Below are positions 1,007 through 39,662 of a stretch of DNA of 64,000 bases, piece after piece (position 1 is the stretch's first letter; every line of letters starts with the position of its first letter). The DNA comes from Microcoleaceae cyanobacterium (GTDB taxonomy: Bacteria; Cyanobacteriota; Cyanobacteriia; Cyanobacteriales; Microcoleaceae): positions 32,001 to 96,000 of the forward strand of contig JBOFUV010000148.1 of NCBI GenBank assembly GCA_051652765.1, written 5' to 3'. The position numbers and the translations under genes were made by a program. Below the pieces are notes generated by a model. It made no database searches. It was not told the DNA's origin and saw only the letters and a program-made list of their open reading frames with translations.

Positions 1007-1825
1007 TCAGAACAAAGTGCCCTGAACAATTTGCGGTTGTGGGTTGGCTGGTTTAGGTGGCCAAAATACACCAAGTACAACCCACTTATTGTAAGGAAAC
1101 ACTGTGCCCATAAAGAAAAGGGTATCCTTACTCTCGTTACACAATTCATCGAGAAACTTACGGTGGACACTTAATGCTGCTTGGTGTTCATCACCTAGTC
1201 GAACTACTTCATTCAACCAAAGTACGCCCAGTTCCCAGTCCTCAATCATCGCATTATGAGGTTTGTGGCTGTCAGCGCACTCAAAAACATAACTAAATTT
1301 GTACGGTATTTTGCGAAGAGGTTTTTGAACAGGCCCGAAGAGAGTTAATTGATCGAACAGAGCCTGCCATTTGGGTTTCCATTCTGAATCAGCAGGTTCA
1401 ATTTTTAAATCAAGCACCCTTGTCGGACGCACAATACCAAGAGATACATTTTCGGAATCATGTAATGAGCATAATTCCTTTACTGTATAGACAGGTATCC
1501 GATCAATGATTTGACGGCGCGCGCTCCACCCATTTTTTGTTGATAGTGGTTCTCCTAAAGCTCTTATTGTATCTAGATTTGGCTTTCTACTTTCCTTTCG
1601 TCGATCATTGCCTGCTCCATGTGGTAGAAGATCAACTTCTATCCACTGATATTTACGAAATTGTTGATTTCTTGGTCTATAGCGGTAGTCTACGGGGTAA
1701 AGTCGAATCCATTCACCCTGCTCAGTTACACCAGCAGTACACACCAGTTCTTGATAACCTCTCGATGGATGGGGATAGGTCATCACAGTGATAAGAACTT
1801 TGGTTCTTATTTCTTGATTGCTCAT
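1007..1825 (-). CDS. Conserved hypothetical protein, partner of the DUF488 protein (resembles dual-OB-type partners)
   Basis: Long ORF with a CTAGV...GEWIRLYP motif. ATG at 1825 overlaps the upstream stop (ATGA), implying translational coupling. Confidence 0.7.
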   Translation of the reverse strand: MSNQEIRTKVLITVMTYPHPSRGYQELVCTAGVTEQGEWIRLYPVDYRYRPRNQQFRKYQWIEVDLLPHGAGNDRRKESRKPNLDTIRALGEPLSTKNGWSARRQIIDRIPVYTVKELCSLHDSENVSLGIVRPTRVLDLKIEPADSEWKPKWQALFDQLTLFGPVQKPLRKIPYKFSYVFECADSHKPHNAMIEDWELGVLWLNEVVRLGDEHQAALSVHRKFLDELCNESKDTLFFMGTVFPYNKWVVLGVFWPPKPANPQPQIVQGTLF

Positions 1826-2694
1826 ACTGGACATCCTAAATGCTGAATTGGCATGTCAATCAAGGTTGTCAGATGCTGAGCAAGAACATTTCGATGACAG
1901 AATTTTGGGTCAGCTTCCATACAAACAAGAACACTAGGCTTAGATTTTAACAAGCCAGTTACATTCAGCAATGCATCCTCTCGTGAGGGAAGACTACTTC
2001 GATAATCATTAAAAAGAGACGTGTACTTATCGGAAGAACTTAGATCATCTCGTTCGGAACCAGGTATTCCTAGTTCGGGAAGATGCTGATAGTCTATTCC
2101 TAGAAAATTACATAGTCGTGCGAGTGTACTCTTATGAAAACCATAGCGTCTAGAGATCGGGTTGAAGCGAACATCGATTAGCTGTGAGATACCAGATTCC
2201 ATCAGAAGATTTAGAAACTCATCAACCGTTTTTCCTTCATAACCAGCAGTGTAGATAGCTTTCTGAGCAATGGGTCGTTTTTTCTTTCTTCTTCCAGGAA
2301 GATCACTGTTAACTGTAAACCAGGAATATTTGTCATAGACTAAATCAAGCAGCTCTTGACTTGATAAATTGCCATACTCAGTAGCAACATAATGGATGTC
2401 TTGAGCTACATTTCTAGGTAAATTAACATCGAACTTTTTCCCTAAATCCGTTAGGCTCCAACAATTATTGTTTCCTTTTTCTAAAAAGCCATTACGAATA
2501 AGTGAATCAGTTTCCTGATTTAGGGTAAAAGAGTAGGGTCCGTAACGATACGGGATGAACTGATAAAAAGTTTTTCCTCCGTGAGAAGCAGTTTCGTGAG
2601 ACAGCAAAAATGCCCACTTCATCACTTGCAAAGGAGATGCAGTAGATCCGACCTGCTGAAGAATCAGTAATAGAGCTTTTTGACGATGTAGCAC
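1822..2694 (-). CDS. Panacea/SocA (DUF4065)-like winged-helix domain fused to DUF488
   Basis: N-terminus has K-x2-F...F.PYRYGPYS. C-terminus has IYTAGYEG...LIDVRFNP.S...YQHLPELG...LVCMEADPKFCHR, typical of DUF488. Confidence 0.8.
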   Translation of the reverse strand: MLHRQKALLLILQQVGSTASPLQVMKWAFLLSHETASHGGKTFYQFIPYRYGPYSFTLNQETDSLIRNGFLEKGNNNCWSLTDLGKKFDVNLPRNVAQDIHYVATEYGNLSSQELLDLVYDKYSWFTVNSDLPGRRKKKRPIAQKAIYTAGYEGKTVDEFLNLLMESGISQLIDVRFNPISRRYGFHKSTLARLCNFLGIDYQHLPELGIPGSERDDLSSSDKYTSLFNDYRSSLPSREDALLNVTGLLKSKPSVLVCMEADPKFCHRNVLAQHLTTLIDMPIQHLGCPV

Positions 2695-3341: not shown

Positions 3342-3773
3342 ATGGAAGAACTAAAGCATCTGGCAACTTGGGTCAAAGAGCAGCACGCAGCGGAGTATAT
3401 TTTAACCTGGCTACTCAATCAGCCTGGAATTTGGTGGTCAAATGGAGAGGTTTATCAAGCTGCCGTTCAGAGATCAGGCAAACAGTTAAAAGAGTATGTC
3501 AAAAACAGTAAACAGGGTGGTTTATTTCAAGGAATTGCTGACAAGGTTGTCAGAGATGAAGTTTGGGATAATATTGCGGTGAGTCTCGCAACCGTGATTG
3601 CTGCTTACCAAGAAGAGTTAGTAAAATTGCAGGATCAAAATCGCTTACGAGTCGTATCCAAGGTGGATTTAGAACATCAAGATAGTAGCTCTAATCCTAA
3701 CGACCCTTGGATTGGCTTGAAAATTCAACAACCCTTGCCGAATCCCAATACAGATGCACTGACAGGGCGTTAA
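3342..3773 (+). CDS. Hypothetical protein
   Basis: 143-aa ORF with AGGAG upstream; no family recognised. Confidence 0.6.
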   Translation: MEELKHLATWVKEQHAAEYILTWLLNQPGIWWSNGEVYQAAVQRSGKQLKEYVKNSKQGGLFQGIADKVVRDEVWDNIAVSLATVIAAYQEELVKLQDQNRLRVVSKVDLEHQDSSSNPNDPWIGLKIQQPLPNPNTDALTGR

Positions 3774-3853: not shown

Positions 3854-4777
3854 ATGATGAGACGACTCACTGCTTTTTCAAGGATAGTTCCCGTTCCAGT
3901 CGGGCTAGGGTTGGCCCTGTGGGTTGCGTTGACCTTGAGTAACTGCACTTCTTCAACGCAACCTCAAGCTTTGACTGCTCCAGCCAATCCAGCAACAACT
4001 GCAAATCAGACAACCACTCCTCCCATTGCTGTGGCTGCAAATTCTACTGTACTCTGGGCAAATGACTTTACGGGAGATTGGCCAGCAGTTTGGCAAACCC
4101 GGAAAAAGGGGGCTTGGGGCTTGGATAATGCTCAAGTGATTCCCGCCGATTCCCGCCCGCAGTTTTCTAAAGCGCTACGGGTCTTTTATCCAGCCCTGTC
4201 TGCAAGTCCAAGTGTTTCGCGCAGTCAGGGAGTTCCCATTGGGGGAGTACAGTTCTACGCTGAGTTAGGAATACCGTCCAAAGATGCTTTAAAACTGAGT
4301 TACTTCGTACGATTTGCCGAGAATTTTGACTTTGTTAAAGGTGGAAAATTACCCGGATTATTCGGGGGAACTGAAACCAGTGGTGGAAATATTCCGGATG
4401 GTACGAATGGCTTTTCGACTCGGTTCATGTGGCGGAAACAAGGGGATGGTGAGGTCTATGCTTACCTCCCCAGCAGTGAAGAATATGGTACCTCGATTGG
4501 TCGGGGCGCTTGGCAATTTCAGCCCGGTGTGTGGCATCATCTGGAACAAGAATTGACTCTAAATCAACCCGGCCTTGAGAATGGTCGCATTCGAGTTTGG
4601 GTGGATGGTAAGTTGGTGTTGGATCGGGACAAACTAATGTTTCGGACAACAGAACAATTAAAAATTGAAGGGATCTTCTTCTCTACTTTCTTTGGGGGAG
4701 GAGATCCCTCTTGGGCAACCCCTAAAGATACTTATGTTGACTTTGCTGCTTTCTCAGTTTCATCCGTTGATGAGTGA
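3854..4777 (+). CDS. Polysaccharide lyase family 14-like (alginate/glucuronan lyase) lipoprotein
   Basis: FDFVKGGKLPGL, FSTRFMWR and FFSTFFGG motifs; hydrophobic signal ending LTLSNC (possible lipobox) and a Pro/Thr linker. Confidence 0.85.
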   Translation: MMRRLTAFSRIVPVPVGLGLALWVALTLSNCTSSTQPQALTAPANPATTANQTTTPPIAVAANSTVLWANDFTGDWPAVWQTRKKGAWGLDNAQVIPADSRPQFSKALRVFYPALSASPSVSRSQGVPIGGVQFYAELGIPSKDALKLSYFVRFAENFDFVKGGKLPGLFGGTETSGGNIPDGTNGFSTRFMWRKQGDGEVYAYLPSSEEYGTSIGRGAWQFQPGVWHHLEQELTLNQPGLENGRIRVWVDGKLVLDRDKLMFRTTEQLKIEGIFFSTFFGGGDPSWATPKDTYVDFAAFSVSSVDE

Positions 4778-4895: not shown

Positions 4896-7013
4896 TTACT
4901 GAGAATTGCTGGCGGGGGAAAATTGATAGGCAGGACTTGCTGCAGAAACAGTTGCCCCTCTGAGGGTGACGTATTCTAGAGTAATGTCTTGGGTCTGGTC
5001 TAACACAACCGGACGGCCATCCCCAACTAAGTCAACATCCCTGACCAAAGCATTGCTAACATTTCTAAACAGCACTCCATCTAAGGACGATGAGGGGCGA
5101 GACGATGTGATCTCAGGCGCAGTCCGCAGCGTGAATCCCCTGAGTTGAACATTTTTAATACTGCTGGCTTGATCGTTCGGCTGCACAATCCAGAATGCAG
5201 GTTGCTGAGTTGACCCAAAATGGGCTTGTAGAATGGTACGTTCAGCATCTTGTCCCCGAATCACAACATTACTGCGTTGGAGAATGATGGGCTGGAATAG
5301 ATCCAATTCTCCAATCGGCAGGTTGACTTGAATCAATCCGATATCTGGCAGTTGATCGATCAAAGCCTGAAGCTTCTGAGCATCGTCACGGCGATCATTA
5401 GAGACAACGCCATATTCGCTGGCGTTCACCACTTGAGTCATCTGCTCAATCGTAGGATCTTGCCGCTTCACCCACCATCCTTGCAGATCTTGCACAGGAG
5501 TTAGGACACCAAACCAACACCACAACAAGGCAACGAAAAAGATGACAACTTGTGTAGCCAGGAGAAAGCGGGAGACGGTCACTTGAAGGTGGCGCACCCA
5601 ACCCGACGCGCCCGCCGTAATCTTTTGATTGCCGCGATTGTTCCAGCTTTGCTGCGCCATATTCATCTGGTTCCAAACTTTGATCACCGATGAAGTCCAC
5701 TGGGTTGCCACCAGAATTGGAAAGTGAATGGGTTTGAGGTGGGAAGGTCGTCCCAAGAAAATAATTAACAACATTAAGGGACGGCTGAAACAGACCCAGG
5801 CAACAATAATTCCAGCAAACAGCCATTTTCCAGTGACTAAAGACAGAATTAGCAAGCCTGGAGTAATCAAGGATGTCCACATACTGATGCGTTGATCCAC
5901 CAAACACCACCAGGGAAACAGTCCAACCACGGAGGGGCCTAGGGAAATCGCCCGACTATTACTTCGCAGCATATTTCCAAACCATCGCCGCATGTTGCTA
6001 TAAGCCCGTTGTACTACTGATCCAGAGTGAGTTTCTAGGGAATTCACAATCACATCAGGCACGTAAATCATTTCATAGCGCCATCGCAGGAGAGAGTACC
6101 AAGTACTTTTGTCATCTCCTGATAAAAATTTGAAGCGACCCCACAGCCAGTCATCCAAGGAGTCGTTCTCAAGCTGATGAATAAAGTCAGGGTGAAAGGT
6201 TGCTCGGGAATGAAATAAAGAAAACCGCCCTGTCAGGCAAAGCACCTTACGAGAAAGGGCCATAGAACACATTTGATAGTGGCGTTGGGCAAATCGCAGA
6301 TGAAACCATTCAGAAAAAACATAGGAGCCTTTGACAACGGGCATTTCATCCGTAGTTAAGGCTCCTAACTTGGGAAACAGACGAAAGAAGGGTAAACACC
6401 CGCGTAACGTTCCTGGGCCAAGTTCAGTATCCCCGTCCATGAGAGCTACGATGGTATCTTCAGGTAATCCCAGATTTCGTAGCTCTTTGAGGCTGTCGGC
6501 CATGGCTTTGCGCTTGCCATCCTTTTGGGTCATCAGAAACAGTTGAATATGCTTTAGACCCGGATCATACTCTTCTAGAAGCTGGCGAATGGCGGCATTT
6601 TCTTCGTCACTGCTACTATTCACCAAAACCGTAACCGGATGAGCTAACGTTTTGGCCTCAGCAACAATAGACTGATAAACGAGTTCATTGACCCACATTT
6701 TTTCTTTGTATGTGGGAACCATAAAACACATATGAGGCAGGTCTTCTACTGGAACCTCACTCGCTCGCTGTCGCCACCGGGGAAATATAACATGGAGATA
6801 AAAGCGGCTCCGGAGGACTTGAAACATGAACCAAGACCAGCGCCAAAGTCCTACAATACCCATTCCAACTACACCGGACATTCCCATCTCTGCCAGTTTC
6901 GCTGGATCGCGCAATAAGACCAGACTGAAAAATCCAACGGCAGAAATGAGTAACATCCCGACCCAACTCTGGCTTTGGCTGGGTTGCTTATCGTCAACAA
7001 CTGTACTTGTCAT
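4896..7013 (-). CDS. alg8: Alg8-like GT2 alginate/mannuronan polymerase with a C-terminal right-handed beta-helix domain
   Basis: GKRKAMA, DGDT, LTTDE, LRFAQRH..MCSMALSRKVL.LTGR, FKFLSGDDKS, RRWFGNMLR and DQRISMWTSL closely match Alg8 motifs. C-terminal VNASEYGVVSNDRRDDAQKLQALID is a pectate_lyase_3-type start. Confidence 0.85.
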   Translation of the reverse strand: MTSTVVDDKQPSQSQSWVGMLLISAVGFFSLVLLRDPAKLAEMGMSGVVGMGIVGLWRWSWFMFQVLRSRFYLHVIFPRWRQRASEVPVEDLPHMCFMVPTYKEKMWVNELVYQSIVAEAKTLAHPVTVLVNSSSDEENAAIRQLLEEYDPGLKHIQLFLMTQKDGKRKAMADSLKELRNLGLPEDTIVALMDGDTELGPGTLRGCLPFFRLFPKLGALTTDEMPVVKGSYVFSEWFHLRFAQRHYQMCSMALSRKVLCLTGRFSLFHSRATFHPDFIHQLENDSLDDWLWGRFKFLSGDDKSTWYSLLRWRYEMIYVPDVIVNSLETHSGSVVQRAYSNMRRWFGNMLRSNSRAISLGPSVVGLFPWWCLVDQRISMWTSLITPGLLILSLVTGKWLFAGIIVAWVCFSRPLMLLIIFLGRPSHLKPIHFPILVATQWTSSVIKVWNQMNMAQQSWNNRGNQKITAGASGWVRHLQVTVSRFLLATQVVIFFVALLWCWFGVLTPVQDLQGWWVKRQDPTIEQMTQVVNASEYGVVSNDRRDDAQKLQALIDQLPDIGLIQVNLPIGELDLFQPIILQRSNVVIRGQDAERTILQAHFGSTQQPAFWIVQPNDQASSIKNVQLRGFTLRTAPEITSSRPSSSLDGVLFRNVSNALVRDVDLVGDGRPVVLDQTQDITLEYVTLRGATVSAASPAYQFSPASNSQ

Positions 7014-7243: not shown

Positions 7244-10012
7244 CTATTTCTGGCCGGGTTTGGACACAACAACAGGTTGAGCGGATCGACCGGGCAACCA
7301 AGTCCGAACTCGATCGGGCAGTCGGTGAACCATCCTTGCCATGGAGTCCAGCTGCGAACTAGACCGTTTGGCAAAGGTGATGTGGGCAACTTGTCCCAAG
7401 CCACAAAGTTGCTGGGCTTGACCATGATCGGGTGGGGGTGGAATTTTGACAGTTACTCGTTTGAGAAAGGGTTCATCCATCAGTTCGGCAGGAATTGTGG
7501 GTGACAACGCCTGGACTTGCATTCGGCGACCCTGGTTATCAATATCTCCCAATGTTCCCGGTAGAGCTTCTGGACTAAGCTTTGTCATAGGCTGGATTAA
7601 ATCAACTTCTCCTTTAAGGATTTGGGAATGGCTCCCTAAGCGCACCTGAACCGGTTGTTGAAGATCAATCCGACTAGCATCTTCTGCACTCACCACCGTT
7701 TCTACCCAGAGGTTGTTGCAATCCAACAAACTCAGAACAGCTTCAGACTGATTGACGATTTCGCCTTTTTCGCGCTCAGTCCGATAGACGATGCTAGAAA
7801 ATGGTGCTGTCAATTGCATTTCAATGGGGGGTTGATTCTGTTGCTGGAGTTGTTGCTGTCCTGAGACGGCTTGCTGTTGTAACTGAAGTTGTTCTTTGTG
7901 GAGCTTTTCCTGTGCTTGTTGCACCCGCACCTGCTCTTGCCGAAGGCTTTCCTGATTGACCTTTTCTGCCTGCATCTGAGTCCTACGCACGTTGTAAAGG
8001 TTTTCTGCCAAAACAAGCTGATGCTCTAGATTCGACACTTCAGTCACCAACGTGTTCGCGGTGGCAGATTGCTGCTCTAGTTGCTGATCCAGTTGCGAAG
8101 CTTCCTGGGTCAGGGCATTAGAATATTTGTTGTTGGCGGTCAGTCCAGCCTCGGTAGCATTGAAGGAAACCTCAGATGCTCGTAGAGCTTCTTTGGCTAC
8201 GGTGACTTCCGCTTGGGCTGCTTCCCACGCGGCTCTGAGTTGATCGACCCGTTGAGCAGGAGCAACTCCTTCAATTTGGAGAGCTTGAAAGCGTTCGTAT
8301 TCACTGCGAGCAAATTTGGCGTGGGCAGTTGCCTGATCCAGGAGTGCCTGTTTTTGGGGAACGTCTGTGGCATTAACACTGATTTCCACAGTGCGCCGTT
8401 GCTGGTATTCCTGCTGAATTTCCTGTAGACGACTTGCGATTGAGCGCTTAGAGCGTTCTGCTGCTTCGAGTTGACCCTGTTTAGTTTCCAGGTCGCCTCG
8501 GAGTTGTAGGATCTCTTGCTGAGCTTTGTAGGATAAATCCTCTAACCTAGTATATTGCGTGTTATCGGTTTTTATAGGTTCAACCTTAGGCGGTTCTGAT
8601 TTGAATTCCATCAAGGTTACGGGCTTGGATTGCTCGTACAGCTCTCTGTCACCTGGAATTCGTTCAATTCGGGCTAATACTTGATTGGCATCCACAACGG
8701 CCCCTGGACGGGCATAGAACTCTGTGATGTTGCCGTTGATGGGCGATCGCAACCGCACCAAACGACCATTGACAACCCCCTGGTTCACAGTCATGTTGGT
8801 CATGCGATGCAAAATCGATGTTGCTGCAATCCCGACTGCTGCTAAACTTGCTCCAACAAACGCCGTGCCAACAAAAAAGCGCCAAACCACACTCGGCTTT
8901 TTTTCAGGGAGCACGGGTCTGGGATTGAAGGGCTTGATTTCAGAACGGCTAGGTTCTGGTTTGCTGATTTGACTCTGGGAAGTGCCTGATACCGTTAACA
9001 CAACCGGCAATCCTTCTGGATGAACCGGAACCAGAGTTGAAGCAGGCGGGGGTTCTGAGGAAAGTGTGAGCGAAGGTTCTGCAGGCTCAACCGCACTTAA
9101 TACTTCAGCGGGCAACGCTTCAGAGGCAAGATTTGGCAAGGGCAGAGGGGAGTTCAAGGGCAGTCGATCGGGTTGGGCGGCTCTGGTTGCTACATCATCC
9201 TCTTCCAATTGAGTCGCAAATATATTGATCCAGGGAGCGAGTTGGGGAGTGGGTTCTGGTAGACGCAGCAAATTCCCTTGAATACCGTCTAGGTCAATTT
9301 CCAGAACCCGTTTTAACGTCTGCTGATCAGCCACGGATTTCACCGTAACTTGACCCAAGGTATGACTAATCTCCTGCAAACGCCTCACCAGAGCAACTCG
9401 TTTTGAGGTGGCTCGAATTTCTTCCAGAAACTGAGGATGCAGTTTCACTAAATCGACGGGGAGTTGCTTGCACTGAGCCAGGGTTAGTTCTTGCCCGGTA
9501 AAGCTGTCGATCACAAATAGGCAACCCAAGGCCGTTAAACCCTGAACAAATGCCAAAGCCGTTGAGAAGTTTTGGGCAATTACAGATTCAGCCAATTCAA
9601 AGCTGAGTTGTCGGGGCTGTAGCTTACTATTGGTGATCCAGAGCTTTAGATCTTGTAAAAACGTTTGATCGTCAAATACCAGATCTGAGAGATTGATAGA
9701 CAGGTGCAGTCTGGGAAAGGGCAGAAGAGCTTCAATTGCTTTTCCGACAACATACCGATCAAGTTGAGGTAATAGTCCCATATCTGCCAAGATGGGCATA
9801 AACTCGTCTGGCAAATAGAGTTTGCCTTGAAAATCTCGCCACCGTAACAACACCTCATTGTGCAACACTTCGTAATTGCTGGTGAAGTACGTTGGCTGAT
9901 ACCAAAGCTCAAATTGTCCAACTTCAAAGGACTGTTCACTAGAGTTCCAAGAATTTGTGCTGGTTTTTGATTCTGGGTGATACATCTTGGTAATGATGAA
10001 GGTAAATTGCAA
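7244..10012 (-). CDS. Degenerate EAL domain + TM + HlyD/MFP protein (Alg44-like copolymerase)
   Basis: N-terminal YQP...EVLLR...SINLS...FELAE EAL fold; Pro-rich linker; TM FFVGTAFVGASLAAVGIAA; LRSPINGNI and LTAPFSSIV lipoyl halves around a long coiled coil; LSLLDC. Confidence 0.85.
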   Translation of the reverse strand: MQFTFIITKMYHPESKTSTNSWNSSEQSFEVGQFELWYQPTYFTSNYEVLHNEVLLRWRDFQGKLYLPDEFMPILADMGLLPQLDRYVVGKAIEALLPFPRLHLSINLSDLVFDDQTFLQDLKLWITNSKLQPRQLSFELAESVIAQNFSTALAFVQGLTALGCLFVIDSFTGQELTLAQCKQLPVDLVKLHPQFLEEIRATSKRVALVRRLQEISHTLGQVTVKSVADQQTLKRVLEIDLDGIQGNLLRLPEPTPQLAPWINIFATQLEEDDVATRAAQPDRLPLNSPLPLPNLASEALPAEVLSAVEPAEPSLTLSSEPPPASTLVPVHPEGLPVVLTVSGTSQSQISKPEPSRSEIKPFNPRPVLPEKKPSVVWRFFVGTAFVGASLAAVGIAATSILHRMTNMTVNQGVVNGRLVRLRSPINGNITEFYARPGAVVDANQVLARIERIPGDRELYEQSKPVTLMEFKSEPPKVEPIKTDNTQYTRLEDLSYKAQQEILQLRGDLETKQGQLEAAERSKRSIASRLQEIQQEYQQRRTVEISVNATDVPQKQALLDQATAHAKFARSEYERFQALQIEGVAPAQRVDQLRAAWEAAQAEVTVAKEALRASEVSFNATEAGLTANNKYSNALTQEASQLDQQLEQQSATANTLVTEVSNLEHQLVLAENLYNVRRTQMQAEKVNQESLRQEQVRVQQAQEKLHKEQLQLQQQAVSGQQQLQQQNQPPIEMQLTAPFSSIVYRTEREKGEIVNQSEAVLSLLDCNNLWVETVVSAEDASRIDLQQPVQVRLGSHSQILKGEVDLIQPMTKLSPEALPGTLGDIDNQGRRMQVQALSPTIPAELMDEPFLKRVTVKIPPPPDHGQAQQLCGLGQVAHITFAKRSSSQLDSMARMVHRLPDRVRTWLPGRSAQPVVVSKPGQK

Positions 10013-13227: not shown

Positions 13228-15231
13228 TCACGCTCTTAGAAGTAAGGCTAATAAGCTGACAGAAATCGTAGTGGGCTTAACCCCTTCACTTAAGATTAAG
13301 TTCTTCTCATCGGTATCCTTCACCAATTCAATAACGAAAGCAGAGGTTTCCAGTTCTGCCTTGACTCCATCGGTATAGTCCCGCAGGAGTTTTTGAACTG
13401 ATTTAATTCCCTTCCAAGTGTTCAACTTCTTGAGCGTATCTTTCACCGTTTTGCGATCGAGTCCATCGGGAAGGCTATCTAACGCACTGATTCTCTATAG
13501 CTCATAGTCGGTTTCGCTAAAGCCCAGTTCGCCCATCTCGCGTTTCCAGTTGTCATGCAACTTGCGAATAGCGACGATCGCAATTTTGGCTTGTCCATTA
13601 GTAGCGCGGTAGAGCCGAGAGACGGTAGCTGCCAAACGGGTCTTACCTAAACCTACCGCATCGGCACAGACAGAAATGCCAAAGTCCTGCATGACCCGCA
13701 GGCAATGTTGAGCGCCTGATTTCTGGTGTTCAAACAGCGTTCCTTGATTCACCAGTTCATCGAGCAAATCGCTTTGCTCTACTCGAAATTGCCGGGGGCG
13801 TTGCTGTGCTAGCCAGTAGAGGAAATCATTGGGTGTGCCATACTGCCCAGACAGGATGAGTTCTACAGCCTGCTGGAATCCTTCGATCTCGTCAAAGTTG
13901 GGCAGTGCTTCAACTTGGCTGACTTGGGGCGGATGCTTCGGCTGAACGTTATATTCTCCACCTGCATTGTCTTTAACTCGAAAATCGGGGATGGGTTGGG
14001 GCGGGTGATCGGGGGAAACGGTGAAGTCGGCGGTAATCTCCTCTGGGGTCTGTTCGGTGATGTTGACTTCGACAAGGGTGTTGTCTGGAACGGTGATGCT
14101 ATCGACCTGATCAAGGTTGTCGCCTGTGATTTTGACTTCGGTGGTTTCGCCTGGTTGAAGCTCGTCGGGAGTAATTTGATCAATACGGGGCTGTCGCTGT
14201 TGGAGGCGGCGATCGTACTCTTGCAAAACTTGCTGTAAGAATTCTTGAGTCAGATCATAGGCAAGGTCTTGATGCTGCCACTCGCTATCAAACTCTTGAA
14301 TACTTTGCTCGATCGTTTCTTGGTCAAGCTGCTCCCAGGAATAGAGAAAGGTGACGCTTTCAGCGTTGCAAGAGTGGGCAGCACGAGTGAAGTTGTCGGA
14401 GCCTTCGTGCAGGACGTGGTTATCGAGGCGATCACTATAAATGCCTGTTTTTTTGTGATAAAGCGAGCGCTGCTGACTCATCTTAATCAGCTTGATTTCC
14501 AAGAAGCCCAACCGCACCAATTCAGCCATGATCTGGGTGCCATTGAAGGCATTTTCTTCTAGTCCTTGAAGAAATTGATGCAACGTGCGTTGAATGAATT
14601 GGGCGCGATAGTCAGGGCTATGTAGCTTTTCGAGTTCTGCCACATCAGCGCGTTTGGTGAACCCCTGCCAGTCCATTAGCAGCCGAATCTGTCCTTCGGT
14701 TTGGACAATGGTTTGCAGGGGTTCTTCGTAGAGTTTGAGCACGCCACTATCAAAGTAGGCGGTGGAACGGCGGTAAATGCTGCTGCGTTCCAGCATCTGG
14801 GCCGTGACTTTGTTGTATGGCTCTAACTGATCAGGGAGGTTGTAGCGTCGTTTAATGCCTTTGATTTCCCGAAAACTGCCGCTGAGTAGAGCAGGTTCTT
14901 TGGTGGTGCGCTCCAGAGTCAGGAATTTTTCAATGATTTTGAGGTTGCCTGTGCGAAGTAACGCAGGGGAGGGCAGATCGCCCGGTTTGCGGGGATTGTA
15001 GGTGTAGATTTTGGCAGTGCTGGGGTCAATCCGAATCACCCTATGGGGAAGGGCTTTATCCTTAAAACCCAGTAGGGAGACGATGTTTTTCAGAAAGTTG
15101 CCACCCTTGTCAGCATCTCGATGCCGAAAAACAAGCCAGTATTGACCCCCAACCCCTTTAACCGAGTTGCCCTGAAGCAGATAGTAGGGTCGTTGCTGGC
15201 GAACTAAATTTTGGATGACGGCTTCGAGCAT
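13228..15231 (-). pseudogene. PLD-domain / Ig-like / SNF2-type helicase gene with a large internal deletion
   Basis: STAYF, HKKTGIYSD and GSDNFT (PLD); ADAVGLGKT (Walker A). A TAG at 13497-13495 follows motif Ia, and the same frame continues (RISALDSLPDGLDRKTVKD...) to 13228. Helicase motifs II-VI are absent. Confidence 0.8.
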
Positions 15232-15250
15232 GGGGAGGAGGTCTGAAGTC

Positions 15251-15384
15251 TTAGTAGAGGGTCAAAATTTCAAGGGTTGAGTCATCGGTTAAAGCTTGAA
15301 TATCAGTCAGGTGCGATCAGGGAATAGGTCGGCTAACCGATTAGCCAGACGGGGCGATAAGTTGTGATCAAATAACAGCTTCAT
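15251..15384 (-). pseudogene. DUF5615 (VapC45-like PIN) toxin remnant, internally deleted
   Basis: Hand translation: MKLLFDHNLSPRLANRLADLFPD joined out of frame to (S)HLTDIQALTDDSTLEILTLY*. Its ATG overlaps the DUF433 stop. Confidence 0.8.
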
Positions 15385-15605
15385 GCCTGAACCAATAAAG
15401 TCTGACGTTCTCGATCGGCGGCATAGCTTAGGCAAGCCAGAATGTCTTCTTGGGTGAGATAGGGAAAGTCATCAAGAATCTCTTGATAGGTCATGCCAGA
15501 AGCAAGATAGGAAAGTACGTCATAGACTGTGATCCGCATTCCGCGAATGCAAGGTTTGCCGCTGCGTTTGCCCGGTTCGATCGTGATTCTTTCGCGATAG
15601 TTCAT
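15381..15605 (-). CDS. DUF433 family antitoxin
   Basis: MNYRERITIEPGKRSGKPCIRGMRITVYDVL...GMT..EIL.DFP.LT.EDI.ACL.YAA. Confidence 0.92.
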   Translation of the reverse strand: MNYRERITIEPGKRSGKPCIRGMRITVYDVLSYLASGMTYQEILDDFPYLTQEDILACLSYAADRERQTLLVQA

Positions 15606-15639
15606 CGTTTGGTTCCTCCAAGTGGTTTGAGTGATCAGT

Positions 15640-16884
15640 TTATTCAAGGGGCCAACCTGGAATGGCGGCATCAATTTGCTGCATCAAGCTCATAGTTTCT
15701 TGCAACGCCACAACAATGCGTTGATAGTGAACAATGTCTTCTAGGCTGAGAGTGCGACCTTTTCGATCTTTTAACCACTTGTGACAGACTTGATAGCCGC
15801 CAACATAAAATTCCCAGACGGCGTTGGGCACTCCGGTAAATTTGTCGCCCTTCTTGTTGATCAGGACACTGCTGGAGCTTTCGTCATACTTGGGATGTCC
15901 TGGATCAACGGTGCAATTTCCCTCAGCTTCTACGAATTGAGTAATGAGCGTGTCGAGTTTAGGAGACTTCATCAAATGTAATGCAACCAGTTCTTCACCA
16001 TAGGCTGAGAGTTGACGAAAAAGCTCATCATTACTGGTGAGCGGAACGCGAGGAAAGTCAATTTTCAGGAATTCAGCGTAGCGGCTGCGGTAAGTAGGAG
16101 CATGGAAAATGCCATAGATGTAATAAAAAATGGCTTCGGGGGTGGGAGTATAGCCAAGTTTGCCGGTGATGTCTTTGAGGAAGTCGGGTGAGAAGTTGGG
16201 GCGACGATGTTCTATTTCTGTGGATTGCTGAGAATTGCTATTGTCAGGATAGAGATAAAGAGGAAAATCATAATTTGACTCTTTCGTTATATTTGAGATT
16301 AAACAATCATTAGGTACTAAATTAGTGATAAAAAAATGACAATACTTCAATGTTGAAATTTGACGCGAACAGATTAGGCATAAATTCTGCTTCTTGAAGA
16401 TATGCTTCCTTAATTCAGGTCTAGCTCTATCCATTATCGAATCTGAGTAAAACATAAACCTGTTGTCAAAGGGTCTATATCCACAAAGTTCTAAATACTC
16501 CCAGATATTCTCTTCTTTTCCTAATTCTTTTGACGCTTGTTTCCAGTTCCAATTTCCAATTTTATACTTTTTGGAGAAATCTGGATCATTTAAATCAGCA
16601 TTGACTAAATCAGTGATCTTATGTATCAAAGTATCTTTTGTAAAATCAATTGCATAATGATCTCTATGGCTTTTAAATCCATAGACATGACTAGGCATTA
16701 CCTCTGTGATTTTCCAACAGGCTTGATATTCACCCAACAAGTCATTATTTTGCGGAATAAACAAATGAAAGGGTTTTTGGGGTGCAAGTTCTGTCCATGT
16801 CGTTGAAGAGACATCATGACTCAACAGCCACTCATACTTACTTTCTCTATTGCCATACAGATGCGCGTGATAAATTTTGGTCAT
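15640..16884 (-). CDS. Type ISP (LlaBIII-like) C-terminal target-recognition domain, encoded as a separate ORF
   Basis: IYHAHLYGNRESKY, YRPFD, FPLYLY, IFYYIYGIFHAPTYRSRY..FLKIDFPRVP, VWEFYVGGYQVCHKWLKDRKGR. Confidence 0.88.
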   Translation of the reverse strand: MTKIYHAHLYGNRESKYEWLLSHDVSSTTWTELAPQKPFHLFIPQNNDLLGEYQACWKITEVMPSHVYGFKSHRDHYAIDFTKDTLIHKITDLVNADLNDPDFSKKYKIGNWNWKQASKELGKEENIWEYLELCGYRPFDNRFMFYSDSIMDRARPELRKHIFKKQNLCLICSRQISTLKYCHFFITNLVPNDCLISNITKESNYDFPLYLYPDNSNSQQSTEIEHRRPNFSPDFLKDITGKLGYTPTPEAIFYYIYGIFHAPTYRSRYAEFLKIDFPRVPLTSNDELFRQLSAYGEELVALHLMKSPKLDTLITQFVEAEGNCTVDPGHPKYDESSSSVLINKKGDKFTGVPNAVWEFYVGGYQVCHKWLKDRKGRTLSLEDIVHYQRIVVALQETMSLMQQIDAAIPGWPLE

Positions 16885-17288
16885 AGCTCAGCCTCCCAAT
16901 CTTCATACGTCAAACCCTCAATACGGCCAAACTCGCGGGTGTTGTGCGTCACAAGGGTCAGATCATGCGCTAGTGCAATCGCCCCAATCTGGAGATCGTA
17001 TCCTCCAATTGGAGTCCCCAACGCATTGAGCTGAGATCGTGTCTTCCCAGCAACTTCGGCAGCAGATTCATCAAACGGCAGCACTACAAACTGGGCAAAA
17101 AAACGCGCCAACTTAGATAAATTCTGCTCTGTTTTTGTGCCACGATATGCCCCGTAATACAACTCTAGCTGGACAATCGTGCATAAACCAATCTCTTCTG
17201 GTTTATGTTGAGCTAGTCTTTGGGAGACTGAGAGCACATCGCCATTCAGAAGCTTGATGCAAACATTGGTATCTAGCAGGTACTTCAC
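16881..17288 (-). CDS. vapC: VapC PIN-domain toxin
   Basis: YLLDTNVCI, ELYYGA, PIGGYDLQIGAIAL, LVTHNTREF. Confidence 0.93.
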   Translation of the reverse strand: MKYLLDTNVCIKLLNGDVLSVSQRLAQHKPEEIGLCTIVQLELYYGAYRGTKTEQNLSKLARFFAQFVVLPFDESAAEVAGKTRSQLNALGTPIGGYDLQIGAIALAHDLTLVTHNTREFGRIEGLTYEDWEAEL

Positions 17289-17518
17289 CGTAGTTCTTCC
17301 CGTAATTCATAATCTGGCTGAATGTCCCTCACGAGTTTTTCGCCCTCCCATCCCCCAACTACCTCCTCAAAAAAACCGGGCTGCCAGCTTTTCTGGCTGC
17401 TTGGCAGCGTCTGGCTATATTTGTGATTAACAAACATTACAAAGTCCAGGATCTCTTGTAGCAAACCGTCTGGGGTCTTGTTAATTTCATTCATTAACTG
17501 TTCCTGCATAGATGCCAT
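17285..17518 (-). CDS. Putative VapB-type antitoxin (DUF2281-like)
   Basis: Small acidic ORF with EILDFVMFV and WQPGFFEEVVGGWEGE; GTGA overlap with vapC. Confidence 0.75.
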   Translation of the reverse strand: MASMQEQLMNEINKTPDGLLQEILDFVMFVNHKYSQTLPSSQKSWQPGFFEEVVGGWEGEKLVRDIQPDYELREELR

Positions 17519-18717
17519 ATCAGATAAACTTCCATTTAGAATTAAACTGCCGTCGATCGCTTAATCATTAAACCGATAGATACACCCTGCTGAATATCAA
17601 ATACATTTTCATCCTTTGAACCATTGCTCGCAGTTTCTTTTTTCTTAGAATTACCATGCAAATCCAAAACCCGAATCCAATCAAATGTCTTCGCTAAACT
17701 CTGGCGCATTCCCCGAAAAGTTGGATTGTCTAAATAGCCATGATTCGTCACAAAGGCCAGAATTCCTACGCCCGTCCTATCAATCCGCCACTGTGAAAAG
17801 CGAATAAATTTGACGTAATCATCCTGCAACCATTTAGGGTTCTTCTCACCCAGCGGTAGACCATCAACCATATAGTAATCTTTTACTAAACCACTAACCC
17901 AAGCGCTTTTATTCTCTGAGTGTCCTGAATAAGGAGGATTTCCGACGATCACCATAACTGGCACATCGAGCTTTACACCTACGGCTTCATTGGCTTCATC
18001 CGCAATAAACTCCTGAAATAGCGTTTCCGAGCGCCGCTGAGCATCATCTAGCGTATTGGTTAGATAGACTCCTAGTCGTTTTCCACTATCAAACTGATAT
18101 CCTGTTTCTTCTAAAAACAATCCTAACTTAAGATGCGCGATCGCATAGGGAGCCATCAGCAACTCAAACCCAAAAATACGAGGCAACAATCGTTCTTTCA
18201 CATACCCCGACCACGATTTGTCATCTAAACCCACCGTTAGCAGATCTGGGTTCTCCTGAAACTTTCGATGAATCTCTTGAAAAATCCACAGCAAAAACGT
18301 TCCCGTTCCGCAGGCTGGGTCAAGGATCATCACTTCTGGGTCAGCCAACCCCAACGGTTTATCAAACTTCTCCTTCAGCAGAATATCGACAGACCGCACC
18401 ATGTAAGACACCACTGGTTCCGGCGTGTAGTAAACCCCTCGTCGCTCCCGCATTTTGGGCTTATAGGCTGCCAAAAAGTCTTCATAGAACCGAATCACAA
18501 TATCTTCGCGGTTCATCTTGGCGCGAAAGTCAGCCAAAATCGCATCCATCTTGGCAGCCCTAAGAATGCTAAAAACCTCAGCGATCGCGTCTGCCAGATC
18601 TTCACCCAACTCAGCGATCGGCTGCTGCGACACATCTCGGAATAGCCGTCTCAGAAAAGGGTTCGTCTCCGGCAATCGTTCCCAGGCATTCTGGCGGTTA
18701 AAATCTGTCTCCCGACT

Positions 18718-18755
18718 CCCCTCTCTCCTCTTAGGAGAGGGGTTGGGGGTGAGGG
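18718..18755. repeat. Cyanobacterial palindromic repeat (CCCTCACCCCCAACCCCTCTCC...GGAGAG type) inserted in frame in the MTase
   Basis: CCCCTCTCTCCTCTTAGGAGAGGGGTTGGGGGTGAGGG; translated as TLTPNPSPKRREGS. Confidence 0.8.
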
Positions 18756-19218
18756 TCTGCCGCTTTCGCTCATCCACGGTATAACTAAAGACCCTGGCCG
18801 TAAACAGCCCATAAGAAATTGTCTGAGCGTAGATGTCAGCAAAGCTGTAATCCTTATCGTTATCCGGTTTCAGCTTTAGCGTCGGCAGCAGTTCGCGCTG
18901 AAAGCTGGTCAACAAGGTGTGCAGATATCCATCCGATCGCTCTGCGTTATAAACAGTCGGAATCGCCTGCTCAATTGCGAGACACTTCCGCCAGTTTTTC
19001 AGCCAGTTCCTTAGCGGTTTCGATCGGCTTGTAAAACGCCCACTCAACCAGAGGAATCACCGATAACGCTTTGTTCTGCATCCGATCGGTTCGAGCCAGT
19101 TCAGATTGTCGCAACCGATTTAGCCGCGCCTGCAAATCTTGCTCCGTCCAGGCAAACGATTGAATCTGCCGTTGCCGCAATTTGCCCTCAGACGGCAGCA
19201 CCATCGCAATCCTGCCCT

Positions 19219-19255
19219 CCTCACCCCCAACTCCTCTCCCAGGTTGGGAGAGGGA
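19219..19255. repeat. Second copy of the same palindromic repeat, opposite orientation, in frame
   Basis: CCTCACCCCCAACTCCTCTCCCAGGTTGGGAGAGGGA; translated as SLSQPGRGVGGE. Confidence 0.8.
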
Positions 19256-19729
19256 AGATTCAGGCAGCAGCAGGTACATTACGGGCTGATTTGGCACAAT
19301 TCGACTGGTGTAATGCCCATAGATTTCCTTCTGCTGCTCGTCAGCCGTGAAAAATTGGAGAATTTCATCTTTGCTCAGGTGATGGAGTTCAGTATAGAAA
19401 CCAACGGCGATCGGGCAGGTGTCTGTTGCCTCATTTTCATCCGCTCCAGGTCGCAGAAACCAAAACCGGGAACCTTCTGGGTCACGCTGCTCAACGGGAT
19501 AGCCCAACAGTTGCCGTAGCGCCTCAACTTGGCTTTCTTGAGTCCCAGAAATAACAGATTGTAAATCTACAGCAGACATACAGGGCTGACCCACACAACG
19601 ATCTCCCCATCAGAATAGCTTATGGCTTGATGCTCGACTCAAGTTTTTGATTCATGGCTGTGCCGCTGTTGTAGCGCCTCATGCTAGAGTAAAAATGCCT
19701 GCCTCGACTTTGAACTATAGCTAAGAACC

Positions 19730-36117: not shown

Positions 36118-38142
36118 ATGACAGATTCATCTCAGCGAAGAACTGCCCTCGTGGCTCAAAGCACTACACCGTTCTGTAATCAGCTCATCCAAGCTGGTTA
36201 TATTAGCCCCGAGCAACTTCAGCAAGCACTCAATGCCCGTAAATCAGGGACATCCCTCACGGAAGCGTTGGAATCAATGACCGGAAAGCCTCTTCCCCCA
36301 GAGCTAGCCCGCCAGTATAAAAAACAGCAGCTATTTGAACAAAAAATTGTCTACGGAGTTGAAGCGTTTGACCTAGAGATTGACCATATTTCAGTTGGAG
36401 ATTTGGATCAAATGCTCAAAACTCTGGAAACCTCCGTTGAAACCTGTAAGCGTCATCGATTTGTTCCGCTCCAAAAAGTTGACAGCAATGGGATTCTAAC
36501 CGTTTTGATCGCGATGGTAAATCCAGATAACCTAAATGCTCTGGATGAACTCAAGAACCAAATTTTGCGACCCAAAGGTTGGTCACTCCAGCGCCGGGTC
36601 ATCACCCAGGAAGACTACGACAAATTAATCTCAGCCTACAGCGACGAAGATGTAAAACGCAAACAAGCGGAAGCATCTCGTCGGGAACAGGAAAAACTCC
36701 AATTTGGGGTCAGTGACTTTGAGGCGGCTGAACTTGAAAGCATTGATGAGTCTGGGGGGCTTGACCTGGCAGATGCCATTGATGAGGCAGAAGCTGCACC
36801 TGTGATTAAGGCCGTCAATATTATTTTGGCCAAAGCTTTATCCGAAGGGGTTTCAGATATTCACGTTGAACCTCAAGAGCATGAAATGCGAATCCGAATG
36901 CGAAAAGATGGGGTGCTACAAGAGTATTTTAAGTTCCCCAAAAACGTTATCCCAGCCATTACATCCCGCTTCAAAATTCTGGCAAGCCTAGATATTGCCG
37001 AACGTCGTCAAGCTCAGGATGGTCGGATTCGGCAACGGTTCAAGGGTAGGGTCGTAGATTTTCGGGTCAATAGTCTCCCCAGTCGCTATGGAGAAAAGAT
37101 AGTTCTGCGGATTCTGGATAGTTCCGCCACTCAACTGGGCTTGGACATTTTGATTACTGATCCAGAGACTTTGGCTCTGGTGCGAGAAGCGGCGGGTCGT
37201 CCCTTTGGTTTGATCTTAGTCACAGGGCCAACGGGTTCAGGCAAGTCTACGTCCCTATACTCGATTCTGTCAGAACGTAACGATCCGGGAGTGAATATCA
37301 GCACTGCCGAAGATCCAATTGAATACGCTCTGCCCGGAATTACCCAATGTCAAGTGATTCGGGAAAAAAACTTGACCTTTTCAACGATTCTGCGGGCCTT
37401 CCTGCGCCAAGATCCAGATGTTCTTCTGGTGGGAGAAACACGGGACTTAGAGACTGCCAAGACTGCACTTGAAGCCGCCCTGACAGGCCACTTGGTTCTA
37501 ACAACTCTCCATACAAACGATGCGGCAGGAGCGATCGCTCGTCTAGATGAAATGGGGGTTGAACCCTTCATGATTTCAGCCGCATTATTGGGAATTCTCG
37601 CCCAGCGTTTGATGCGACGGGTTTGTACTGAATGTCGGATTCCTTATATTCCGACTCCAGAAGAATTGTCCCGCTATGGACTCTTCGAGCGCCAAGAGGA
37701 AGCCTCCACCTTTTACCAGGCGAATATTGTTCCGATAGATCACCGCAAAGAGCTGGCTGACCGGGGAGAACTCTGCAAGAAGTGTGGAGGATTAGGTTAC
37801 AAAGGCCGGATCGGGGTCTATGAGTTCCTCAAAGTCACCGAGCGAATGCAGGGCTTAATTACTCAGGGTGCTCCCACAGAGCAAATCAAAGAAGCTGCTG
37901 TCGAAGAAGGAATGCAAACTTTACTATCTTACAGTTTGCAATTGGTGCGAGATGGGCATAGTACCTTTGAGGAAGTGGATCGGGTTACGTTCACCGATTC
38001 TGGTCTAGAAGCCGAGATGAAACGATTGGCCAAGCAAAATCTAACCTGCAAGGGCTGCAACGCTCAACTGAAACCAGAATGGCGGGATTGTCCTTACTGT
38101 TTGACCCCTCGCTTTACCGAATATGCCATGGAGGCTCATTAG
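36118..38142 (+). CDS. pilB: Type IV pilus assembly ATPase PilB
   Basis: SDIHVEP, GPTGSGKS, LRQDPD, C-terminal CxxC...CPxC. Confidence 0.95.
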   Translation: MTDSSQRRTALVAQSTTPFCNQLIQAGYISPEQLQQALNARKSGTSLTEALESMTGKPLPPELARQYKKQQLFEQKIVYGVEAFDLEIDHISVGDLDQMLKTLETSVETCKRHRFVPLQKVDSNGILTVLIAMVNPDNLNALDELKNQILRPKGWSLQRRVITQEDYDKLISAYSDEDVKRKQAEASRREQEKLQFGVSDFEAAELESIDESGGLDLADAIDEAEAAPVIKAVNIILAKALSEGVSDIHVEPQEHEMRIRMRKDGVLQEYFKFPKNVIPAITSRFKILASLDIAERRQAQDGRIRQRFKGRVVDFRVNSLPSRYGEKIVLRILDSSATQLGLDILITDPETLALVREAAGRPFGLILVTGPTGSGKSTSLYSILSERNDPGVNISTAEDPIEYALPGITQCQVIREKNLTFSTILRAFLRQDPDVLLVGETRDLETAKTALEAALTGHLVLTTLHTNDAAGAIARLDEMGVEPFMISAALLGILAQRLMRRVCTECRIPYIPTPEELSRYGLFERQEEASTFYQANIVPIDHRKELADRGELCKKCGGLGYKGRIGVYEFLKVTERMQGLITQGAPTEQIKEAAVEEGMQTLLSYSLQLVRDGHSTFEEVDRVTFTDSGLEAEMKRLAKQNLTCKGCNAQLKPEWRDCPYCLTPRFTEYAMEAH

Positions 38143-38329
38143 TCAGGATTAAGTTAGCTAAAATCAAGGGAACCTTAGTCTCAATGACTGAATAACCCGA
38201 TTCCCTTTGAAACGGCGGTTCCTATAATCGCCTTGACTAGGGCCAATTTGGGCGGTTGATATTTGAACTGTGGTTTAGATTCGATTTAGATTTGATTTAG
38301 ATTTGGTTTAGATTTGGAGGATTAAAACA

Positions 38330-39433
38330 ATGGCACTAATGATCGAAGATGTCATGGAGTCCTTGATTGAACAAGGGGGCTCCGACATGCACATCCAAGC
38401 AGGGGCTCCGATTTTTTTTCGCATTAACGGAAAATTGACCACTCAACCCCAGTTTGGGGAAATTTTTTCTCCAGAGGAAGTACAGGCCCTGATTTTTCAG
38501 ATGCTGAATAATATGCAGCGGAAACAGCTAGAACAGGAATGGGAACTTGACTGTGCTTACGGCGTGAAGGGGCTGGCTCGGTTTCGGGTGAACGTTTATC
38601 GGGAGCGGGGCTGTTGGGCAGCTTGCTTAAGAGCTTTGGCTTCCAAGATTCCCAATGCAGATAAGTTGGGAATCTTGCAAACCATTCGAGATATGACCGA
38701 ACGCCCTAGAGGGCTGGTTCTCGTCACGGGCCAAACTGGATCAGGAAAAACCACGACTCTGGCAGCATTGCTAGACTTGGTCAATCGCACCCGAGCTGAA
38801 CACATTCTGACCGTTGAAGATCCGATTGAATACGTGTTCCCCAATATCAAAAGCTTGTTCCATCAACGGCAAAAAGGGGAAGACACCAAGAGCTTTGCCA
38901 ATGCCTTGAGAGCTGCCCTGCGGGAAGATCCTGATATCATTTTAGTTGGAGAGATGCGGGACTTAGAAACCATTGCACTTGCCATCTCTGCGGCAGAAAC
39001 AGGTCACTTGGTCTTTGGCACCCTACACACCAACTCTGCTTCATCCACGGTTGACCGGATTCTAGATGTGTTTCCTCCCATTCAACAGCCCCAAATTCGG
39101 GCTCAGTTGTCTGGCTCCCTGGTTGGGGTGTGTAGCCAAAACCTGGTTCAGACCATTGGCGGAGGCCGTTGTGCCGCCCAAGAAATTATGTTAAACACTC
39201 CGGCCATGGGTAACCTGATCCGAGAGGGCAAAACAGCTCAGATTTATTCCCAGATCCAGATGGGAGCAAAGTTGGGAATGCAGACAATGGAGATGTCCCT
39301 GGCTAAACTTTATCAAGAGGGAAAAGTCTCTTGGGAAGCAGCCATGAGCAAAACATCCAGGGCAGATGAACTGGAACGGCTAATTGGCCCTGCACCTAAG
39401 GGAACAAAAGTTTCCAAGGTGGCAGCTCACTAA
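38330..39433 (+). CDS. pilT: Type IV pilus retraction ATPase PilT
   Basis: GQTGSGKTT, ALREDPD, NLIREGK. Confidence 0.96.
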   Translation: MALMIEDVMESLIEQGGSDMHIQAGAPIFFRINGKLTTQPQFGEIFSPEEVQALIFQMLNNMQRKQLEQEWELDCAYGVKGLARFRVNVYRERGCWAACLRALASKIPNADKLGILQTIRDMTERPRGLVLVTGQTGSGKTTTLAALLDLVNRTRAEHILTVEDPIEYVFPNIKSLFHQRQKGEDTKSFANALRAALREDPDIILVGEMRDLETIALAISAAETGHLVFGTLHTNSASSTVDRILDVFPPIQQPQIRAQLSGSLVGVCSQNLVQTIGGGRCAAQEIMLNTPAMGNLIREGKTAQIYSQIQMGAKLGMQTMEMSLAKLYQEGKVSWEAAMSKTSRADELERLIGPAPKGTKVSKVAAH

Positions 39434-39662
39434 TTAAAGCTCACCTGTGAACACTCATCTGTGAACACTCATGAGTCAAAGTTCCCAATTAACCAGTCAC
39501 TTGATGTGTAGGGGCGGGCATCTTGCTCGAGGTTGTGGGCAATCCCAATTGACTTGTGCTGAAAACCTACACTCAGGGACATTTAAGATTGCTGTTCCAA
39601 ACTGAATTGTTATCGATTGAACGTTCGAATACTAACCTCAACATTGATCTAAGGGTGAAACC

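Follow-up and report, generated by a model that had tools for sequence, protein, structure and literature searches.

In a 64,000-nucleotide (nt) stretch of DNA from a Microcoleaceae cyanobacterium (contig JBOFUV010000148.1 of assembly GCA_051652765.1, positions 32,001 to 96,000; hereafter the window), one open reading frame (ORF) joins a degenerate EAL domain, through a proline-rich linker and a transmembrane helix, to a periplasmic membrane fusion protein (MFP). Judged from its recurrence and residue pattern in related genomes, this conserved pseudo-EAL on a synthase-linked export adaptor is real, and we lean towards the view that it is a non-hydrolysing receptor of cyclic di-GMP (c-di-GMP), through which the synthesis or export of a polymer would be tuned. 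The fusion gene is followed after a gap of 230 nt by a GT2 synthase of the Alg8 family and then by a convergent lyase of family PL14. The genome (5.04 Mb) is 99.97% complete, and at least 19 further relatives have the full EAL-transmembrane-MFP architecture, the closest named ones in Lyngbya, Limnospira and Microcoleaceae, which suggests a filamentous host. The parts on which the argument rests are the following, with residues counted in amino acids (aa).

7244..10012, minus strand: EAL-linker-transmembrane-MFP fusion gene, 922 aa if translation starts at TTG and 913 aa if at the ATG of 9985; GAGGAGGT lies 12 nt ahead of the TTG.
9266..9937, minus strand: degenerate EAL domain, aa 26-249, from a Pfam match, residue alignment and predicted structure.
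9338..9340, minus strand: codon of Lys225 at the general-base Glu position, a signature of the family (43 family against 100 control EALs).
8897..9226, minus strand: linker rich in Pro, Glu, Ser and Thr, aa 263-372, with low conservation and a length that differs among relatives.
8798..8890, minus strand: single predicted transmembrane helix, aa 375-405.
7361..8797, minus strand: periplasmic MFP with split lipoyl domain, long helical hairpin (aa 485-716) and beta-barrel.
5484..7013, minus strand: synthase part of the Alg8-family GT2 (aa 1-510; the whole ORF, 4896..7013, has 705 aa), with DGD, GDDK and MRRW motifs.

The EAL domain scores 146 bits against Pfam EAL (PF00563; curated cut-off 31.3), and its AlphaFold model has a mean pLDDT of 91 and TM-scores of 0.79-0.88 to the solved EAL structures listed. 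Its best sequence matches are RbdA and MorA, with VAKFVA aligned against IAEFVE of RbdA. All EAL motifs quoted in an earlier, sequence-only reading of this DNA were found in the ORF (YQP at 38-40, EVLLR at 53-57, SINLS at 105-109, FELAE at 138-142, IDSFTG at 168-173, KLHPQF at 190-195 and VKSVAD at 224-229), as was the domain order it proposed (Pfam EAL and HlyD_3, a linker with 18% Pro, and a hydrophobic segment at 375-393).

Residues were surveyed in 43 distinct family EALs and in 100 control EALs, the latter being other EALs in the same homologue listing; consensus positions such as E352 follow RocR numbering. E175, N233, E265, D295, K316 and Q372 have roles in active EALs, described in part in PMC12943098. 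Each of Q161, P162, E175, R179, N233, E265, D295, K316 and Q372 is kept in 43 of 43 family EALs. The window domain retains Q39, P40, E53, R57, D85, N107, E139, D169, K190 and Q245, and is changed to S170 at D296 and to K225 at the general base E352. The proposed loss of the metal ligands was accordingly right for D296 only (Asn in 31 family EALs, Asp in ten, Gln in one and Ser in the window protein), since E175, N233, E265, D295 and Q372 are invariant. The claim that KLHPQF replaces KID also stood in part: the Lys (K316) is kept throughout, and it is the Asp that has become His, a change at D318 unique to the window protein (Asp in 34/43). The loss of the general base, on the other hand, was borne out, as the E352 position is Lys in 42 of the 43 family EALs and Thr in the remaining one, while the controls have Glu in 98/100 and Lys in none. 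The DDFGTG motif is indeed replaced: loop 6 is remodelled and reads DSFTGQEL in the window EAL (DNF-type in most relatives) instead of the DDFG(T/A)GYSS of active enzymes, with its GTGYSS part lost and a family-specific, conserved F-x-x-x-x-L-T-L-x-Q-C in its place. Other family-specific surface or core residues are also invariant across the family EALs. E352 is catalytic and loop 6 essential to activity, and mutation of the equivalent Glu abolished the activity of TBD1265 (PMC12943098). From this residue pattern we infer that the window EAL is a pseudo-enzyme that has lost its general base and is likely non-hydrolysing.

In contrast to the whole domain (mean conservation 0.596) and to 11 beta-core positions (0.715), the 14 positions of the ligand pocket have a mean conservation of 0.986 among 15 non-redundant EALs (<70% identical, mean identity 44%), a value matched by 0 of 100,000 random position sets. 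As known EAL motifs guided the choice of pocket positions, this conservation shows retention, not binding, and a near-invariant pocket would be as expected of a dead receptor. Most dinucleotide-contact residues are kept in the window EAL, but the position of E355, a usual guanine contact, is Ala, and a Phe/Tyr position of the family is Ser. Matched by motif spacing only, Q463, R481, P491, M495, D508, Q673 and G674 of FimX, for which a list of dinucleotide-contact residues is available (PMC7288161), correspond to Q39, R57, P68, M72, D85, Q245 and G246; D85, at the position of FimX D508, is kept in 41/43 family EALs versus 19/100 controls. The identity of the EAL to its relatives (38-65%) exceeds that of the hairpin in seven of eight comparisons and equals it in one, which argues that the EAL is not decaying. 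A complex prediction with EAL, GT2 and c-di-GMP gave a score of 0.00 and a mark of 0.32, and was not used as evidence either way.

The architecture search for EAL plus HlyD beside alg8, suggested in the sequence-only reading, was run on 26 distinct GT2-anchored loci collected from separate homologue listings (the window, 10, 13 with one duplicate dropped, and 2). In 26/26 the MFP gene shares its strand with an Alg8-family GT2 and stands upstream of it, and the N-terminus of the MFP carries an EAL in 18 loci, a REC in one and neither in seven; REC-EAL forms of the MFP also exist. No EAL remnant was found in any of the eight EAL-less loci (8/8), and the GT2 motifs are intact in five loci without EAL (L028, L035, L037, L043 and L044) and in the REC locus L038. 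The MFP of L032 looks truncated. An apparent frameshift in L025 turned out to be a run of N, and this locus was counted as EAL. At L039:1532-3646 (minus strand) a GT2 with degenerate motifs (DGN, no GDDK, QQW) stands beside a sensor-less MFP and is possibly decaying or catalytically dead. Pfam scans detected no PilZ in the window proteins or in 36 relatives.

When profiles built partly from these same loci were run on one 201-genome sample of the order, the GT2 was found in 15 genomes, the core MFP in 16 and the EAL type in nine, and in all nine the EAL is fused to the MFP at the GT2 locus; a phylum sample of 401 genomes had the GT2 in seven. A profile search yielded 150 representatives (50% clusters; proteins without genomic context), of which 46 reached >=220 bits, 41 of them including the transmembrane start; among these 41 there was no sensor in 31, an EAL in eight, a REC in one and a REC-EAL in one. 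The 20 EAL forms on the MFP tree all belong to a single clade of 44 rows in which sensor-less forms are interspersed (nine changes), and on the GT2 tree the presence of EAL changes four times, with EAL forms in both GT2 clades. The simplest reading of these trees would be one gain of the EAL followed by repeated losses, because all EAL forms share the Lys signature. No ABC, MFS or RND pump was a recurring neighbour in the fetched loci. Matches to GGDEF number 12-55 per genome in 22/22 genomes, with 14 in the window genome, which also has two TolC-like genes.

The adaptor part is recognised by Pfam HlyD_3 (57 bits; cut-off 22). Its lipoyl halves are spaced about 190-290 residues apart in the four family members measured, and the intervening segment is modelled as long helices. 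The long Pro-rich spacer ahead of the membrane is lineage-specific, with about 23-170 aa across 14 relatives. The best structural matches are to EmrA, from a model with a pTM of 0.38 that was used for secondary structure and general fold class only; an ESM Atlas search with the whole protein gave no usable match. The idea that the fusion is an Alg44 whose PilZ was swapped for an EAL found no support. BLAST of the MFP part against Alg44-like proteins showed no similarity, and HHalign against an Alg44-like profile gave a probability of 2% over 67 columns, a weak comparison with only three Alg44-like sequences, full-length Pseudomonas Alg44 not among them. In the Alg44-like proteins one lipoyl half runs straight to the other, with no hairpin. 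The next-tier MFP matches in the 201-genome search instead flank PilZ-bearing cellulose synthases in three of three cases (E 1e-37 to 1e-47). A search for XcsB kin in five genomes found pump adaptors only (EmrA-like ones reached 4e-27), and six PilZ loci inspected had no MFP neighbour. Outside its own family the MFP thus appears closest to cellulose-synthase partners of the XcsB type, named XcsB not being among the sequences compared. Some relatives have internally repeated hairpin segments and a longer periplasmic arm (L028:8233-10074, minus strand, 614 aa; P0253, 670 aa), and a second tier of related MFPs (P0296, P0297, P0300, P0303, P0305, P0309, P0310, P0322, P0331 and P0358) has N-terminal REC domains, several of these degenerate.

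That the neighbouring gene encodes a GT2 of the Alg8 family was borne out by its sequence, as its motifs are intact and it is 34-38% identical (E down to 4e-74) to GT2s of algD-alg8-alg44-algA clusters on alphaproteobacterial plasmids, the only plasmid matches (14 records). Several GT2 homologues carry the JGI names 'glycosyltransferase Alg8' or 'mannuronan synthase'; sequence searches of the PDB with the GT2 found no Alg8 structure. The three plasmid clusters opened have the order dehydrogenase-GT2-MFP-nucleotidyltransferase-beta-helix, and their MFP matches Alg44 PilZ structures weakly (E 0.003). These are alginate-like operons on Rhizobium, Jannaschia and Salipiger plasmids (L040:7522-17065, L041:7560-18321 and L042:7561-15863), in whose Alg44-like proteins the PilZ RxxxR motif is seemingly missing by eye, with no Pfam PilZ in the two scanned. 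The remaining features of the locus bear on the product.

4896..5483, minus strand: pectate-lyase-like beta-helix extension, C-terminal and fused to the GT2; no PilZ.
3854..4777, plus strand: PL14 polysaccharide lyase, convergent with the GT2, with a lipoprotein-like N-terminus by eye (Pfam, 218 bits).
3342..3773, plus strand: hypothetical gene of 143 aa upstream of PL14, a candidate component only.

The beta-helix tail is present on the GT2 in all cyanobacterial loci fetched, while the alphaproteobacterial GT2s (~490 aa) are without it. Its Pfam match is weak here (E 0.022) and reaches E 7e-6 in a relative, and the Atlas score is 0.95; it could be a periplasmic guide, an epimerase or a lyase. 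PL14, a family that includes alginate lyases and beta-1,4-glucuronan lyases (PMC11890756), is found within 13/26 fetched loci, and the 143-aa gene adjoins PL14 also in two Lyngbya loci. An AlgD-like gene lies between MFP and GT2 in 8/26 loci, with the GDP-mannose dehydrogenase 1MFZ as best PDB match (E 7e-118). In four of these eight loci the beta-helix genes were tested, and one matches AlgE4 (2PYG) at E 3e-36. L032-L038 and L044, with the order MFP-algD-alg8 and several with AlgE-type epimerase genes and PL14 as well, are candidate true alginate clusters in cyanobacteria. A supposed equivalence between a loop Asp of the algD-linked GT2s and the Asp of proteobacterial Alg8 was dropped, the two being offset by two positions.

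The window locus is one of 18 that form a clade on the GT2 tree (support 100/97); none of them has an adjacent algD, and the loop ahead of their GKR motif is different. Four of the 18 clade genomes gave an AlgD-class match elsewhere and the other 14 gave none, including the window genome, where AlgD-like queries met only a UDP-glucose-dehydrogenase-like match (34-38%). The absence of algD in this clade is a single event on the tree and not a statistical correlation. Because an AlgD-class gene was not found in a genome that is 99.97% complete, the product need not be alginate here, and the chances that the polymer of the window clade has switched to glucuronan appear about even. Neither AlgK, the AlgE porin nor AlgX/I/J/F is encoded beside the window GT2, the genome as a whole not having been searched for these families. 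In three genomes of one genus a ugd gene adjoins the MFP, but it belongs to a ugd-epimerase pair that lies elsewhere in the window genome and was therefore given no weight. Four Microcoleaceae genomes carry, at a distance from the GT2, a gene that resembles algD (49-50% to the query); in the two opened, L047:5261-6751 and L048:5902-7398, it stands amid signalling and housekeeping genes. In L030:2080-4056 and L031:6064-8061, nucleotide-sugar epimerase/decarboxylase genes are split by an intein (Hint and LAGLIDADG matches).

A mechanism consistent with these observations can be outlined. The kept Q/P/E/L/R/P/D/N/E/D/K/Q/G pocket would hold one c-di-GMP, bound and uncut, with Lys225 possibly replacing the lost second metal, and the transmembrane helix would keep the EAL beside the GT2. 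The long hairpin would reach across the periplasm to a channel of the TolC type, in line with the proposal for cyanobacterial XcsA-XcsB-TolC. The EAL would most likely be a brake released by c-di-GMP, or a rheostat, and not an obligatory switch. A brake or tuner is favoured over an obligatory activator because sensor-less relatives with intact synthase motifs persist, and a brake also by analogy with the autoinhibition of LapD. The product, a polyuronate, would be trimmed or cleared by PL14, and its precursor here is more probably UDP-glucuronate than GDP-mannuronate.

Several observations weigh against the c-di-GMP receptor proposed above. The EAL is absent in 8/26 loci, and 32/41 full-length 50%-cluster representatives are without a plain or combined EAL. 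Two orphan MFPs have no GT2 nearby, one in genome G162 and one a second copy in G029 (L100:6192-7598 and L103:86-1399). The chosen pocket motifs are conserved for the fold, too, and the linker of ~110 aa loosens any coupling of the EAL to the membrane. The first-metal ligands are intact in 43/43, and D296 is kept in 10/43 relatives. The E355 position varies across the family; the window EAL has Ala there, Ser226 where 38/43 have Phe/Tyr, and His192 at D318; with these three replacements the window copy could bind c-di-GMP weakly.

If c-di-GMP-bound EAL instead turned the GT2 on as the PilZ of Alg44 does, loss of the EAL would abolish synthesis. Such obligatory activation, as the sequence-only reading envisaged, would fit the Alg44 topology, a GT2 without PilZ, the EAL forms in both GT2 clades, which suggest an early origin, and the fact that c-di-GMP activation is common to synthase systems (PMC8892547). 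It is weakened by the eight loci that do without an EAL, since these have no remnant of one, five of them and the REC locus have intact GT2 motifs, and EAL presence changes four times on the GT2 tree and nine times on the MFP tree; we regard it as unlikely. A minor but appreciable chance is left for a dead EAL that docks a partner (a cyclase, an active EAL or a localisation factor) or oligomerises, with c-di-GMP binding weak or irrelevant. The family motif in place of loop 6, the other invariant family-specific residues, the unconserved E355 and the ability of REC to fill the same slot speak for ligand-independent docking, but 41-43 of the 43 family EALs retain the ligand-facing Q39, R57, D85, N107, K190 and Q245, with the new Lys positioned in the pocket.

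A slow or trigger phosphodiesterase, lowering c-di-GMP locally or sensing it via turnover, would make use of the intact E175, N233, E265, D295, K316 and Q372 (43/43) and of D296 where present (10/43). It is quite improbable, as activity is described as needing both the general base, here a Lys, and loop 6, here lost (PMC12943098). Just as slight is the probability that the domain recognises pGpG or another cyclic dinucleotide; the E352K change adds positive charge, the E355 position is free and the FimX EAL has been solved with pGpG (4AFY), but the genomes are GGDEF-rich. Finally, the MFP might serve another transporter and its place beside the GT2 be incidental, in line with the EmrA-like fold, the 230-nt gap and the two orphan copies. 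The linkage in 26/26 GT2 loci across many families, the lack of a recurring pump neighbour and the fact that the nearest outside relatives are also synthase partners make this hardly credible.

The c-di-GMP-responsive tuner favoured here can be set against three known systems. Like Alg8-Alg44 of Pseudomonas and Azotobacter, it would pair an Alg8-family GT2 that has no sensor of its own with a separate bitopic partner. Alg44 has a cytoplasmic nucleotide-binding fold, one transmembrane helix and a periplasmic MFP (PMC3815931), and the predicted topology of the fusion protein is the same. It differs in having EAL, REC or nothing where Alg44 has PilZ, a hairpin of ~190-290 aa that Alg44-like proteins do not have, and a gene upstream, not downstream, of the GT2, which itself carries a fused beta-helix; the lyase is PL14 and the window clade has no adjacent algD. 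The fusion protein is Alg44-like in layout, yet an assignment to Alg44 is not shown by the comparisons above. As in cyanobacterial cellulose secretion by XcsA-XcsB-(TolC) (Maeda et al. 2018, via PMC12430437 and PMC8892547), an HlyD-like adaptor adjoins the GT2 synthase and a glycan-cleaving enzyme is nearby, whereas the synthase here is Alg8-type without PilZ, the sensor is on the adaptor and the cleaving enzyme is a polyuronate lyase; TolC export by XcsA-XcsB is described as a model not yet validated (PMC12430437, PMC8892547). With LapD and FimX it shares a catalytically degenerate EAL, in which most of the presumed dinucleotide contacts are kept, LapD being autoinhibited and freed by c-di-GMP (PMC3032553). 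Here, however, a GGDEF partner is missing, the EAL precedes the membrane helix, the target would be a polysaccharide machine, and a Lys takes the general-base position while the first-metal ligands remain.

In its widest form the proposal would describe a chimeric polyuronate system, with Alg8 plus beta-helix, an XcsB-like hairpin adaptor for TolC export, PL14 and a sensor slot on the adaptor filled by EAL, REC, REC-EAL or nothing. In it a new pseudo-enzyme EAL class with Lys in place of base and second metal would act as a c-di-GMP-released brake, and the window clade, after loss of the adjacent algD and a switch to UDP-glucuronate, would make glucuronan and the sister loci alginate; as a whole this remains doubtful.

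Elsewhere in the window, a type ISP-like restriction-modification gene lies in pieces at 13495-19594 (minus strand; methylase 17542-19047, specificity domain 15640-16884). A PIN-like ORF of 135 aa separates these two pieces, and a phospholipase-D/helicase-like ORF comes after the gene, both recognised by eye. At 1007-2694 (minus strand) a DUF488 protein with a weak Panacea/helix-turn-helix-like N-terminus overlaps the gene of a 275-aa protein without Pfam match, an arrangement that resembles a defence-type pair. A type IV pilus cluster of the pilB-pilT-pilC type (T2SSE, T2SSE, T2SSF) occupies 36118-40799 (plus strand). Promoter and terminator scans gave counts at or below those of shuffles, and an Rfam scan of the window gave no match.

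In open-access full text, subscription journals lying outside the search, no description of an EAL-MFP fusion or of this locus was found. A phylum-wide survey reports no PilZ-HlyD (Alg44-type) protein in cyanobacteria and mentions a GT2 group of 14 strains (PMC4594306), the HlyD genes of one Phormidesmis genome are reported to be all PilZ-less (PMC4971617), and the receptor table of a review has just two c-di-GMP receptors from cyanobacteria, neither of them an EAL (PMC10519070). The locus suggests one way in which the Alg8-like synthases of cyanobacteria may find their partner and be controlled. If this is true, EAL would join PilZ, degenerate GGDEF and composite sites as sensor folds on polysaccharide synthases, and the natural EAL, REC and sensor-less versions make the sensor role directly testable. 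The algD-linked loci, in turn, point to alginate-like polymers from phototrophs.

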